A stretch of 64,000 nt of DNA from a virus. Lineage: Duplodnaviria > Heunggongvirae > Uroviricota > Caudoviricetes. Shown in pieces: positions 12,049 through 13,386 of this stretch (position 1 is its first letter; each line of letters opens with the position of its first letter). The notes under the pieces are model-generated. The model worked only from the letters and a program-made list of their open reading frames with translations. It had not been told where the DNA came from and searched no databases. A program made the position numbers and the translations under genes. The stretch is taken from IMG/VR virus record IMGVR_UViG_3300049830_000314, one strand, 5' to 3'.

Positions 12049-13386
12049 CTACGATGTCAATTCATTGACATCTGGCATGAAGATTTCATAATAATCCAAA
12101 ACCTCAGCCATAATAGCTTTCAACGTACCTGTGGCTGGATTTTTCTTATTCTCTTCGATATATTCATCGCACAACTTATTCCAGAAGAATTTCGTCAACG
12201 TTTTCATTGCAGAGCTAAAATCGACTCTATTGTTCACATCATCATGAATAAATTGTTTTGTGTAATCCCAATAAGATTGCCAATCTGGATTGAGTTCATC
12301 GTCGGTTTGCATATTGATGAACTTTCGAGCATTTCGAATCTTGTTCAACAATTTCTTACCTTGAAGCATGATGTCTTCATCCATCAACGTGTCTGTTCCG
12401 ATTTGATTCTGAGCCGCCCAATAACGGATTGGACTATTACCCCATTTTTCAATATGACCAGTTAATGGCTTGTAGTTCGAAGAACTTTTAGCTAGCTTCT
12501 TACGCTCTTTATCCAAAGCATGACCACTAATGATAATTTTCTTCCATGGAATCTTGCCATTATGGTAGAGTGACTTTACAATGGTGAAAAGCGCCCATGT
12601 GCGAATGATATCATGCGCCTGGAATCGTGCGTCAAAGGTTGGAACATCAAGAGTTGGCTCATGACCATAGGCAGCATATGCCATTTGTGGTGAAAGACTA
12701 CTCGTAAACCATGTGTCAAAAACAAGGCCTGGTTCGCCAGGGATTGGAATGCCGTAAGTTCTTTCGCGACTAATCGACCAATCGTACTTGAGTTCATCAA
12801 TCCAACACAAAAGACGATGCTTAAAGTGAGCAGGATGCCATTCAATCTCTTCGATGGCGGCACGAATCTCTGGAAGGTAATCCAGCATTTTGATGAAATA
12901 CCCCTCTCCGCGACGAATCTCAACTTTAGCACCTGAACGCTCGTAGCACATGTCGTCGGTGAGTTCTGATTGTGAAACAGAAACATTGGTGATTGGACAC
13001 CAGAAATATTCGGTTTCTGCTTTGTAAATCAATCCTTTTTGCATCAAGTCTTCAAAAGACATGTTGGCAAGCTTGATAGCATTGTCATCAAACGTGCTAT
13101 AAGTATTGTCATCAAGGCAAAGTCCCATTGTTTTGAACATTGCTCGATACTCTTCAGCCTTCTCGTTGGAAAATGCTAAAATTGCTTCTGGAGTTCGATA
13201 TCCATTCTTTTGAGCAAGCTTTTCTGTTGGCAGCCCGTTATTGTCATAACAGAAAGGATACACAAGCTTGTTGCCAAGCATTTTTTGGTATCGAGCCATA
13301 TAGTCCATTTGCGAATAACTAAACATGTGTCCCATGTGTAATTCTCCACTAATTGTAGCTGGCGGTATGTCAATCAAGTATTCCAT
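12049..13386 (-). CDS. leucyl-tRNA synthetase-like catalytic core lacking the CP1 editing domain and the C-terminal tRNA-binding domain
   Basis: ISGELHMGHMFSYSQMDYMARYQKMLGNKLVYPFCYDNNGLPTE closely matches the bacterial LeuRS HMGH region ([44 protein letters not shown]). WCP, DWSISRERTYGIPIP, VFDTWFTSS and a KLAKS (KMSKS) variant are present. In LeuRS about 190 aa of CP1 sit between the HWPD...NWIG and DWGVSRQR motifs; here they are adjacent. The ORF ends about 130 aa after KMSKS. Confidence 0.75.
   Translation of the reverse strand: MEYLIDIPPATISGELHMGHMFSYSQMDYMARYQKMLGNKLVYPFCYDNNGLPTEKLAQKNGYRTPEAILAFSNEKAEEYRAMFKTMGLCLDDNTYSTFDDNAIKLANMSFEDLMQKGLIYKAETEYFWCPITNVSVSQSELTDDMCYERSGAKVEIRRGEGYFIKMLDYLPEIRAAIEEIEWHPAHFKHRLLCWIDELKYDWSISRERTYGIPIPGEPGLVFDTWFTSSLSPQMAYAAYGHEPTLDVPTFDARFQAHDIIRTWALFTIVKSLYHNGKIPWKKIIISGHALDKERKKLAKSSSNYKPLTGHIEKWGNSPIRYWAAQNQIGTDTLMDEDIMLQGKKLLNKIRNARKFINMQTDDELNPDWQSYWDYTKQFIHDDVNNRVDFSSAMKTLTKFFWNKLCDEYIEENKKNPATGTLKAIMAEVLDYYEIFMPDVNELTS

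Follow-up and report, generated by a model that had tools for sequence, protein, structure and literature searches.

A gene for a reduced class Ia aminoacyl-tRNA synthetase was found on the minus strand of a 64,000-nucleotide stretch of a Caudoviricetes genome (IMG/VR record IMGVR_UViG_3300049830_000314; this whole stretch is hereafter called the window). With moderate confidence, we interpret it as a phage-specific miniaturised valyl-tRNA synthetase (mini-ValRS) of archaeal-type descent that is predicted to charge tRNA-Val without editing. The gene is an intact ATG-to-TAG frame in the list of open reading frames, and its 445-aa product matches the Pfam family tRNA-synt_1 (E 9.9e-43). Its features are the following.

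12049..13386, minus strand: mini-ValRS, class Ia aminoacyl-tRNA synthetase (Pfam, NCBIfam, AF2 model and dN/dS)
13345..13365, minus strand: PPATISG, residues 8–14 (alignment to 1GAX)
13327..13338, minus strand: HIGH signature HMGH, residues 17–20 (H17, G19 and H20 invariant in 77 homologues)
12931..12966, minus strand: site of CP1 loss, residues 141–152, ELTDDMCYERSG (alignment with full-length ValRS)
12595..12717, minus strand: second half of the pocket, DTWF (224–227) and HDIIRTW (258–264) (D224, T225, W226, H258, I260 and W264 invariant)
12484..12498, minus strand: KMSKS signature KLAKS, residues 297–301 (family alignment, 77 homologues)
12052..12378, minus strand: helix-bundle anticodon-binding domain, residues 337–445 (Pfam Anticodon_1 and AF2 helices)

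The original prediction had taken this gene for a phage-encoded leucyl-tRNA synthetase (LeuRS), citing the motifs HMGH, WCP (residues 129–131), DWSISRER (residues 202–209), DTWF and KLAKS. All of these motifs are present in the protein; they are common to class Ia synthetases in general and do not identify a LeuRS. In the KMSKS signature, which follows the pattern K-[ILFM]-[SA]-K-[ST] in the family, K297 is conserved in 75 of the 77 homologues and K300, like the three HMGH residues, in all of them; 144 aa separate KLAKS from the end of the protein. WCP had been described as a zinc region, which is correct only insofar as C130 is kept (66 of 77 homologues). The other cysteine positions are not conserved, so the four-ligand zinc knuckle is gone.

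Profile searches assign the protein to the ValRS family. Three NCBIfam models of ValRS score highly (PRK13208, 349.8 bits; alt_ValS, 263.5 bits; TIGR00422, 228.7 bits), whereas those of IleRS (149.1 bits), LeuRS (95.6 bits) and MetRS (94.8 bits, cutoff 336) remain far below. A profile search that placed the protein outside LeuRS had been named beforehand as evidence against the leucine assignment, and ValRS is the family that the search favoured. The protein does not reach the PRK13208 equivalog cutoff of 738 bits, and about 45% of that profile has no counterpart in it. The alignment with the LeuRS profile covers the N-terminal half only, and comparison with the E. coli LeuRS yields 74 bits over residues 12–196. 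In place of the LeuRS signatures MFPYPSG and HxxxHLIYARF, the window protein carries PPATISG and HDIIRTW.

The composition of the predicted amino acid pocket agrees with the profile scores. Residues P8, P9, D48, W226, I260 and W264 align with P41, P42, D81, W456, I491 and W495 of the Thermus thermophilus ValRS (1GAX), and none of them varies in the 77 homologues. We take the six T. thermophilus residues to form the valine pocket, with Pro41 and Pro42 as its wall, and the equivalent of Pro41 presumably shuts out larger side chains; these roles reportedly go back to the work of Fukai et al. in 2000. In a neighbour-joining tree (100 bootstraps) of the mini proteins, ValRS and Ile/Leu/Met outgroups, the minis and ValRS were split from the outgroups in 96 of 100 replicates, and the minis were monophyletic in 70. 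As judged from these sequence comparisons, the window protein is a descendant of a valine enzyme and not of a leucine enzyme. The original idea of a phage-borne class Ia enzyme pared down to its catalytic core, here with a short anticodon-binding bundle, and lacking cis editing is supported; the leucine family is not. For an enzyme of ValRS descent, the misacylation to be expected would be Thr or alpha-aminobutyrate on tRNA-Val instead of the proposed Ile, Met or norvaline on tRNA-Leu.

It is very improbable that the gene encodes a LeuRS core charging the neighbouring Leu tRNAs with leucine. Leu tRNAs do lie close by, and LeuRS can be aligned through the generic class Ia motifs, but the difference in profile scores, the partial alignment and the ValRS-type pocket all argue against this reading. 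In addition, some contigs with a member of the mini-ValRS family carry a true mini-LeuRS of 422–426 aa (417.6 bits to leuS_bact) as a distinct gene.

The absence of the CP1 editing domain, part of the original prediction, was confirmed. The CP1 site contains three residues (between 143 and 147), compared with a median of 154 and a range of 145–375 in 27 full-length ValRS, and one strand of the CP1 hairpin passes straight into the other (model strands 120–130, 135–137 and 156–165). No match to an editing domain was found anywhere in the window by Pfam or by tblastn with full-length ValRS. Full-length ValRS have another insertion, ~43 aa long, that is missing as well; the N-terminal ~35 aa of archaeal-type ValRS have no counterpart in the alignment, and the protein stops a median of 109 residues short of the full-length C-termini.

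This last observation bears on the proposed lack of a C-terminal domain, which is true of the final ~109 residues but not of the anticodon-binding helix bundle, which is kept. The bundle is recognised by the Pfam model Anticodon_1 (31.5 bits, cutoff 25.1) and consists of helices 337–358, 367–386, 390–415, 419–436 and 440–444 in the AF2 model. Twelve of its 18 ValRS-conserved positions are kept, including F400, F401, W402, C406, D407, E411 and K414, and six are changed; the ValRS-type signature FFW..CD...E..K is thus still present. The bundle is the least conserved region of the family, with a mean majority-residue fraction of 0.46 against 0.62–0.70. Removal of the C-terminal part from T. thermophilus ValRS reportedly weakens tRNA charging.

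The nearest cellular relatives are archaeal-type ValRS (PRK13208), for instance from Rickettsiales, Clostridia, Thermoplasmatota and DPANN, with 28–34% identity. They share PPPT(V/I)SG...HxGH, QxHDIIRTW and FFW..FCD.Y.E..K with the window protein, which keeps 82 of their 113 conserved catalytic positions and 12 of the 18 in the bundle. The AF2 model (pLDDT 95.1, pTM 0.91) has its top query-normalised TM-score, 0.88, with the ValRS 1GAX, whose pocket residues align one-to-one with those of the window protein. The 862-aa 1GAX possesses editing, anticodon-stem-binding and C-terminal coiled-coil domains, all of which are missing from the window protein. The predicted architecture resembles that of MetRS. 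MetRS cores of ~500 aa (such as T. thermophilus 1A8H/2D54 and S. aureus 7WPM) have the same inventory of Rossmann fold, small CP, KMSKS/SC fold and helix bundle, and the lowest E-values in the Foldseek comparison are theirs (2.9e-25; TMq 0.82, TMt 0.71–0.74); being only ~20% identical to the window protein, they are alike in architecture and not in family. Their example shows that such an architecture is enough for tRNA charging.

The CP1 editing domain is regarded as near-universal in Leu, Ile and Val synthetases, and the LeuRS of Mycoplasma mobile is the one classic natural exception. This enzyme (3ZIU; TMq 0.81) has lost CP1 like the window protein; unlike the window family, it belongs to the Leu family and is cellular and confined to a single lineage. 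The M. mobile LeuRS retains its C-terminal tRNA-binding domain and has been linked to proteome-wide mistranslation.

These comparisons suggest a model for the origin and function of the mini-ValRS. Descent from an archaeal-type ValRS involved the loss of two CP insertions (the CP1 editing domain and the second one), of the zinc knuckle and of the appendages at either terminus. Still present are HMGH and KLAKS in a Rossmann catalytic fold, the residues that align with the valine pocket, the SC fold and an anticodon-binding bundle of four to five helices. We infer a catalytically active and valine-specific enzyme that would activate valine with ATP and transfer it to tRNA-Val, whether phage-encoded or of the host, reading the acceptor end and, through the kept bundle, the A35–C36 part of the anticodon. 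Thr-tRNA-Val would not be hydrolysed in cis, so that fidelity would have to come from the synthetic site alone, or be supplied in trans by the host ValRS or a different factor; charging is probably less faithful than it would be with editing. The enzyme may benefit the phage, as it probably helps to keep or redirect translation capacity during infection. If it is active, huge phages either tolerate or exploit charging of lower fidelity or depend on host factors that edit in trans. Phage-encoded tRNA-Val genes in related genomes count in favour of this model; the low score relative to the equivalog cutoff, the lost C-terminal part, the weak conservation of the bundle, the lack of a tRNA-Val gene in the window and the frequent proximity of Leu tRNAs count against it.

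The window protein belongs to a family that is large, conserved and found almost only in huge bacteriophages. The family was defined for practical purposes by a length of 420–490 aa, a full-length match in a single stretch, the lack of CP1 and location on a phage contig, and the window protein has all of these properties. It comprises 113 clusters of 420–490 aa that are 41–88% identical to the window protein across 92% or more of its length, while two shorter entries cover ~65–67%. The clusters are found on phage contigs of up to 673 kb with tRNA arrays, and 391 metagenome stretches carry confirmed members. Among the 80 best loci kept from 185,579 species genomes, only one was of the mini type. 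Comparison of the window gene with its 88%-identical relative in locus L015 yielded a dN/dS of 0.064, which is indicative of purifying selection. The 70-kb contig SRR23617308_655111 also comes from a close relative of this phage.

A decaying fragment, an assembly artefact or a split gene is extremely improbable. The protein is only ~55% as long as a normal ValRS, as would be expected of a fragment; yet the frame is intact, the catalytic residues are invariant, the fold is predicted with confidence, the same architecture recurs in more than 110 clusters, and the dN/dS is low. The window has no other ValRS-like piece. In tblastn searches of the whole window with eight full-length ValRS, nothing beyond the gene itself and chance matches (E >= 0.05) was obtained; these searches also answer the possibility, raised with the original prediction, that the CP1 or C-terminal domain is encoded by a missed adjacent frame. 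A split or frameshifted gene was rejected on these searches and on the identity of the neighbours, a 4HBT thioesterase (13422..13829) and a 78-aa ORF (11809..12045).

The family is apparently undescribed. No description of a CP1-less phage ValRS or LeuRS was found in the full-text literature outside subscription journals, including Al-Shayeb 2020 and Iyer 2021, and PHROGs has no dedicated family, the best match being a 903-position profile of unknown function. Published huge-phage genomes already annotate family genes as ‘valyl-tRNA synthetase’, which bears on the original remark that the arrangement was not recognised from any described phage; no text on the reduced architecture was found.

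A parallel mini-LeuRS family was found in the same phage clade. Its members (412–442 aa; P0275, L009:15394-16674 and LR745206.1 404831-406099) carry MFPYPSG, HLIYARF and KMSKS, derive from bacterial-type LeuRS, are only 27–31% identical to the window protein, have undergone the same kind of reduction and are likewise embedded in arrays of Leu and Val tRNAs. The loss of their editing and C-terminal domains is indicated by their size, by the sequence as read and by the leuS_bact profile, whose 843 positions they match in four stretches. The mini-LeuRS is the protein that truly fits the earlier LeuRS hypothesis. It occurs together with mini-ValRS, as a separate gene, on L009 (4 kb apart), on the complete relative LR745206.1 and on the 518,809-bp contig of L007. 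LR745206.1 also encodes a mini-MetRS, and IleRS too is present among the genomes with mini-ValRS.

Reduction of ValRS has occurred elsewhere. The cultured Stenotrophomonas jumbo phage RAS14/CM1 encodes an annotated ValRS of 449 aa (WAX21612.1) that aligns without a CP1-sized insertion and from which part of the CP core is also gone. It derives from bacterial-type ValRS (PRK05729, 314 bits; MPPPNITG and KFSKS) and is 29% identical to the window protein; its reduction is independent of, and convergent with, that of the window family. ValRS of ~670 aa from bacterial contexts (P0142, P0188 and P0118) have 19–20 residues at the CP1 site, compared with ~160 in full-length enzymes. Unlike the window protein, they have lost neither the N-terminal extension nor the second insertion, their C-terminus is complete, they pass the PRK13208 cutoff (748–749 bits), and their genes lie among housekeeping genes; in the neighbour-joining tree they branch inside full-length ValRS, apart from the phage minis. 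Together, these findings reveal a large, ancient and phage-restricted family of CP1-less ValRS under purifying selection, a parallel mini-LeuRS family and a separate CP1 loss in a cultured jumbo phage. At ~420–450 aa, mini-ValRS and mini-LeuRS would be natural minimal scaffolds for synthetic biology and for studies of aaRS evolution.

The mini-ValRS gene is located within a ‘translation island’ that includes tRNA arrays, a truncated GluRS-like gene, a short release factor, a formyltransferase and Thg1. Leu-anticodon tRNAs of long-arm and short-arm types lie 1.9–3.5 kb upstream of the gene; a double set about 2–3 kb away had originally been noted.

15277..15563, minus strand: long-arm tRNA-Leu(UAA), its U34 and A35 separated by a group I intron of 201 nt (Rfam, and exons read in the sequence)
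16352..16870, minus strand: upstream array of six Leu-anticodon tRNAs (ARAGORN, folds and Rfam)

The array contains long-arm tRNAs with anticodons GAG (88 nt) and UAG (83 nt), short-arm tRNAs with GAG (77 nt), UAG (75 nt) and CAA (77 nt), and a sixth tRNA (UAA, 85 nt) with an odd D-arm. The group I intron matches RF00028 at 15347–15538 (55.1 bits, gathering score 50). No tRNA-Val gene was found in the 64-kb window by ARAGORN or Rfam; LR745206.1 has tRNA-Val(UAC) and tRNA-Val(GAC).

The nearest tRNA is Leu in 17 of the 28 tRNA-bearing loci and Val in only three; after removal of duplicate contigs, Leu is nearest in about 12 of 20, and the flanks total 88 Leu and 17 Val tRNAs. The predominance of Leu is not accounted for by the ValRS reading alone. 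L049 and L073/L074 have tRNA-Val genes only 47–80 nt upstream of the mini-ValRS gene; in L040 and L045, they are found within 4–7 kb of it. In L037, L040 and L045, a 75-nt Leu(CAA) tRNA lies 76–77 nt upstream of the start, and where its acceptor stem differs from locus to locus, there are compensatory changes. The same arrays contain a long-arm tRNA-Val(UAC) of 87–89 nt. A73 and A35 are two major valine identity determinants (PMC9976931), and both are carried by the Leu tRNAs examined as well as by the Val tRNAs. The setting of the gene, among atypical tRNAs for Leu and Val, is conserved.

One explanation, which we regard as quite unlikely, is an enzyme of ValRS origin whose rules of tRNA identity have changed and whose partners would be the short-arm Leu-anticodon and long-arm Val tRNAs, either in a phage-private (orthogonal) pair or for the deliberate placement of Val (or Thr) at Leu codons. 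The conserved synteny with Leu tRNAs, the compensatory changes in the adjacent Leu(CAA) tRNA, the shared A73 and A35, the long-arm tRNA-Val(UAC) and the presence of tRNA-contacting domains among those lost are consistent with this explanation. However, the mini-LeuRS is comparably linked to Leu arrays, with Leu as the nearest tRNA in 6 of 12 loci and Leu tRNAs 16–19 nt upstream; an ancestral Leu/Val module with both enzymes would account for the synteny. L009 carries both genes, the LR745206.1 mini-ValRS has no tRNA within 20 kb, the ValRS-type bundle signature is kept, and Val at Leu codons would harm the phage's own proteins. The short Leu tRNAs of the window have 3-bp Leu-type D-stems and are closest to other Leu tRNAs, which makes them doubtful candidates for disguised Val tRNAs; in one lineage, however, the Leu(CAA) tRNA of LR745206.1 is about equally close to Val(UAC) and to Leu tRNAs.

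It is more doubtful still that the mini-ValRS (in sister phages, also the mini-LeuRS) and the non-canonical tRNAs of the same arrays, short-arm Leu-anticodon and long-arm Val tRNAs, together make up a charging system private to the phage. Lacking the editing domain and the C-terminal appendage, such an enzyme may accept any tRNA with A73 and A35. Were this true, Val (or Thr) at some Leu codons would amount to programmed statistical mistranslation; alternatively, the pair would be orthogonal and insulated from host synthetases and tRNA-targeting defences. The original prediction of a pair co-adapted with the neighbouring Leu tRNAs is right about the linkage, but mini-LeuRS has the same linkage. 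Proximity to tRNAs was dropped as a sign of cognate pairing, since the mini-LeuRS control is similarly Leu-linked, while in LR745206.1 the mini-LeuRS adjoins Pro, Asp and Gln tRNAs.

Another alternative, unlikely in our view, is a non-translational paralogue, that is, a valine-adenylating or tRNA-binding protein that does not supply Val-tRNA to ribosomes. It might aminoacylate another acceptor, take part in a tRNA-dependent modification, or sequester or regulate tRNA or the host ValRS. Paralogues of aaRS with non-translational roles are well known and have been reviewed (PMC9437257), and aa-tRNA can be used by phages for DNA modification (PMC13219725). The loss of the appendages of full-length ValRS, the score under the equivalog cutoff and the 4HBT thioesterase gene directly upstream in the window and in L015 could be interpreted in this way. 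On the other side, the anticodon-binding bundle and KMSKS are kept and conserved, active MetRS cores share the architecture, tRNA arrays surround the gene, often with a tRNA-Val next to it, and mini-LeuRS, mini-MetRS and IleRS are encoded in the same genomes. The thioesterase neighbour is not conserved past the 88%-identical relative, and on this ground it is not supported as a candidate trans-editing factor either, a role for which we know of no precedent. Pfam searches of the 18 surrounding ORFs detected no trans-editing or tRNA-binding helpers.

Two further observations concern the neighbourhood of the gene. An ORF of 105–118 aa, absent from the window and with no family match, is found beside the gene in six related loci. 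In LR745206.1, a homologue of the thioesterase adjoins another tRNA array.

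The ORF at 12049..13386 on the reverse strand of the window is intact from its ATG start to its TAG stop and encodes a protein of 445 aa. All motifs listed in the original prediction, which took the protein for a leucyl-tRNA synthetase (LeuRS), were found: HMGH (residues 17-20), WCP (129-131), DWSISRER (202-209), DTWF (224-227) and KLAKS (297-301). These motifs are shared across all class Ia enzymes. The LeuRS identity is disfavoured, since valyl-tRNA synthetase (ValRS) profiles outscore LeuRS and the discriminating segments are of the ValRS type. The three top NCBIfam profiles are ValRS models (349.8, 263.5 and 228.7 bits), compared with 149.1 bits for IleRS, 95.6 for LeuRS and 94.8 for MetRS; the LeuRS alignment is restricted to residues 13-196. 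The Pfam search found tRNA-synt_1 (E 9.9e-43) and Anticodon_1 (31.5 bits, cutoff 25.1), and no match to an editing domain in the protein. In alignment with Thermus thermophilus ValRS, PPATISG..HMGH pairs with MPPPNVTG..HMGH, and DTWF and HDIIRTW with the segments containing Trp456, Ile491 and Trp495. The valine pocket of the T. thermophilus enzyme reportedly consists of Pro41, Pro42, Asp81, Trp456, Ile491 and Trp495; the counterparts P8, P9, D48, W226, I260 and W264 show no variation across 77 homologues. A rough neighbor-joining tree on simple distances groups the reduced phage proteins and ValRS against IleRS, LeuRS and MetRS outgroups in 96 of 100 bootstraps, and the reduced proteins are monophyletic in 70 of 100. 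By sequence comparison the protein is ValRS-derived and not a LeuRS; it is hence termed mini-ValRS.

The anatomy of mini-ValRS was compared with 27 full-length archaeal-type ValRS. The predicted absence of the editing domain CP1 was borne out: three residues, between 143 and 147, stand against a median of 154, and the strands of the CP1 hairpin are directly joined. A second insertion (median 43 residues in full-length ValRS) is missing between residues 216 and 222, the N-terminus as read off the alignment is shorter by about 35 residues, and of the zinc-knuckle cysteines C130 alone is conserved. The predicted loss of the C-terminal domain holds in part: a median of 109 C-terminal residues is gone, but the helix-bundle anticodon-binding domain is kept. 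Twelve of 18 bundle positions conserved in full-length ValRS are also present, including F400, F401, W402, C406, D407, E411 and K414, which are not common to the Ile, Leu and Met outgroups. From sequence, a non-translational paralogue of ValRS seems improbable. AlphaFold2, run on the family alignment, gives a confident model of mini-ValRS (pLDDT 95.1, pTM 0.91). In a Foldseek search of the PDB, the best E-values belong to MetRS cores roughly 500 aa long (TMq 0.82, TMt 0.71-0.74), whereas the top query-normalised TM-score is that of T. thermophilus ValRS (1GAX, 0.88); LeuRS of M. mobile, which naturally lacks CP1, has TMq 0.81. Taken together, the structural matches and the domain losses present mini-ValRS, as modelled, as a ValRS reduced to the architecture by which MetRS charges tRNA.

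The mini-ValRS family is conserved and phage-restricted. The homologue search yielded 113 clusters of 420-490 aa with 41-88% identity, almost all spanning the whole query, on contigs reaching 640-673 kb; JGI labels the homologues 'valyl-tRNA synthetase'. The metagenome scan confirmed mini-ValRS in 391 stretches. Among 80 loci kept from a scan of 185,579 genomes, one per species, a single one, on a MAG contig of 3.9 kb, is of the mini type; the others are full-length archaeal-type ValRS (28-34% identity) from Rickettsiales, Clostridia, Thermoplasmatota and DPANN. The best match among GenBank phages is the complete huge phage LR745206.1 (634,780 bp, 46.7% identity). A gene fragment is refuted by the intact ORF, a dN/dS of 0.064 against the 88%-identical relative L015, the 113 clusters and the lack of any other ValRS piece in the window; no editing or C-terminal piece is encoded elsewhere in it, so the gene is not split. 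CP1 has been lost from ValRS more than once. In the cultured Stenotrophomonas phage RAS14, a 449-aa protein of bacterial-type ValRS descent (PRK05729, 314 bits) has lost CP1. ValRS of about 670 aa without CP1 and with full C-termini (P0142 in L109, P0188 in L111, and P0118) lie among housekeeping genes on bacterial contigs and pass the cutoff of the NCBIfam ValRS profile PRK13208, so loss of the editing domain occurs in cells too. Phage synthetases are a known phenomenon, and members of the mini-ValRS family already carry ValRS labels. In full-text literature outside subscription journals we found no account of a CP1-less, C-terminally truncated ValRS or its conservation throughout the family, nor any of the parallel mini-LeuRS.

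This mini-LeuRS, a genuine LeuRS of 422-426 aa from related huge phages (leuS_bact 417.6 bits; motifs MFPYPSG, HLIYARF and KMSKS), served as a positive control. Three contigs carry both enzymes: L009 (mini-LeuRS at 15394-16674), LR745206.1 (404831-406099) and a 518,809-bp contig of L007. Over 120 mini-LeuRS clusters exist, the longest of their contigs reaching 780 kb. Related huge phages also encode a 457-aa mini-MetRS and a 735-aa IleRS with the editing-domain motifs kept (LR745206.1 32198-33568 and 382047-384254, respectively); a typical IleRS is longer, about 860-920 aa. The supplement of Al-Shayeb et al. 2020 contains a 469-aa 'Valine--tRNA ligase' as well as a 'Leucyl-tRNA synthetase' CDS, on Ig8144_scaffold_2, that agrees with the LR745206.1 mini-LeuRS in N-terminal sequence.

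The double set of Leu tRNAs noted in the original prediction is real and larger than described; it lies upstream of mini-ValRS on the same strand. With isotypes assigned by anticodon only, the long-variable-arm members are Leu(GAG) (88 nt), Leu(UAG) (83 nt) and an intron-split Leu(UAA), and the short-arm members are Leu(GAG) (77 nt), Leu(UAG) (75 nt) and Leu(CAA) (77 nt). The array includes:

15277..15563 (-), long-arm tRNA-Leu(UAA) with a group I intron (Rfam RF00028, 55.1 bits)
15623..16303 (-), free-standing HNH endonuclease ORF
16352..16436 (-), Leu(UAA)-like tRNA of 85 nt (Rfam tRNA, 33.5 bits, model positions 6-65)
16453..16870 (-), paired long- and short-arm Leu tRNAs

The 201-nt intron separates U34 from A35 (5' exon 15529-15563, 3' exon 15277-15327), which we take to be the site of the cyanobacterial and plastid tRNA-Leu intron. 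ARAGORN called neither this tRNA nor the 85-nt one, whose D-arm is unusually large. HNH-like sequences also occur in the tRNA arrays of L007 and L120. Leu tRNAs paired in this way, one of 82-95 nt with a long arm and one of 74-78 nt with a short arm, recur in L015, L030, L119 and L133, and at 388-390 kb of LR745206.1, among phages whose mini-ValRS are only 47% identical. Long-arm tRNA-Val(UAC) of 87-89 nt is present in arrays of L040, L045 and L073. Neither short-arm bacterial-type tRNA-Leu nor long-arm tRNA-Val has, to our knowledge, been described. No tRNA-Val was found in the 64-kb window.

Among 73 mini-ValRS loci, which are not phylogenetically independent, 28 have tRNAs; the nearest is Leu in 17, Glu in four and Val in three. 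The flanks hold 88 Leu and 17 Val among 207 tRNAs, compared with five Leu of 59 in the whole LR745206.1 genome. After manual removal of duplicate contigs the nearest tRNA is Leu in roughly 12 of 20 loci and Val in two; mini-ValRS and Leu arrays thus show conserved synteny. The suggested pairing of the enzyme with Leu tRNAs stands as synteny, but several observations argue against reading it as an enzyme-substrate relation. L049 and L073/L074 have tRNA-Val genes 47-80 nt upstream of mini-ValRS; L040 and L045 have them within 4-7 kb. Mini-LeuRS is linked in a similar way: Leu is nearest in six of 12 loci, and two lineages have Leu tRNAs 16-19 nt upstream of it. LR745206.1 has no tRNA within 20 kb of mini-ValRS, and its tRNA-Val(UAC) and tRNA-Val(GAC) are 350 kb away. 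A ValRS-derived enzyme whose tRNA identity rules have changed, including one that charges Leu-anticodon tRNAs, appears distinctly improbable. The pattern is most simply explained by an ancestral Leu/Val tRNA module with both mini enzymes, rearranged later.

We propose that mini-ValRS would activate valine and charge tRNA-Val via acceptor-end and anticodon contacts; established valine determinants are A35, C36 and A73 (PMC9976931). Thr-tRNA-Val could not be cleared in cis because CP1 is absent, and fidelity would then be set by the synthetic site, or by host ValRS or other factors in trans; the 18 ORFs around the gene yielded no match to a known trans-editing domain. Without its C-terminal appendage the enzyme is expected to bind tRNA more weakly or to rely on another protein; removal of this part reportedly weakens tRNA charging by T. 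thermophilus ValRS. The likely benefit to the phage would be charging sustained or redirected during infection, as proposed for phage synthetases in general (Al-Shayeb et al. 2020).

Mini-ValRS sits in a long same-strand run of genes with translation-related content. Genes in the window include:

8648..9238 (-), 196-aa protein with Formyl_trans_N alone
10237..10896 (-), 219-aa release-factor-like protein retaining the RF-1 domain and just the end of PCRF
10932..11771, Clp_N protein
13422..13829 (-), 4HBT (hotdog) thioesterase, directly upstream of mini-ValRS
19958..20866 (-), 302-aa GluRS/GlnRS catalytic domain alone (tRNA-synt_1c, E 2e-59)
48788..49855 (-), Thg1-family tRNA-His guanylyltransferase

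The 219-aa and 196-aa proteins may be further reduced translation factors. The anticodon-binding domain is absent from the 302-aa protein, and the start of its gene and the first of five Glu tRNAs overlap. In many related loci a homologue lies close to mini-ValRS or mini-LeuRS, and three copies occur in LR745206.1. The thioesterase is conserved beside mini-ValRS in L015 only; a homologue at 341.7 kb of LR745206.1 is immediately upstream of another tRNA array. The window has more than 25 tRNAs. Two tRNA-His genes (74 and 84 nt; 53225..53388, reverse strand) lie about 3.4 kb from Thg1. A GOLLD RNA (34450..34916, reverse strand; Rfam RF02032, 154.3 bits, gathering score 150) contains a UCA-anticodon tRNA (34774..34848), labelled tRNA-SeC by ARAGORN and possibly a UGA suppressor. 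The ARAGORN tmRNA call at 57721..58106 (reverse strand) overlaps two tRNA-Pro genes, has no Rfam tmRNA match at the gathering score and is probably a false positive. Genes for a protein-kinase-like protein (below the Pfam cutoff), a PP2C phosphatase and a VWA-domain protein stand in a row at 59554..63341 (reverse strand) and may form a phage-encoded Ser/Thr signalling module.
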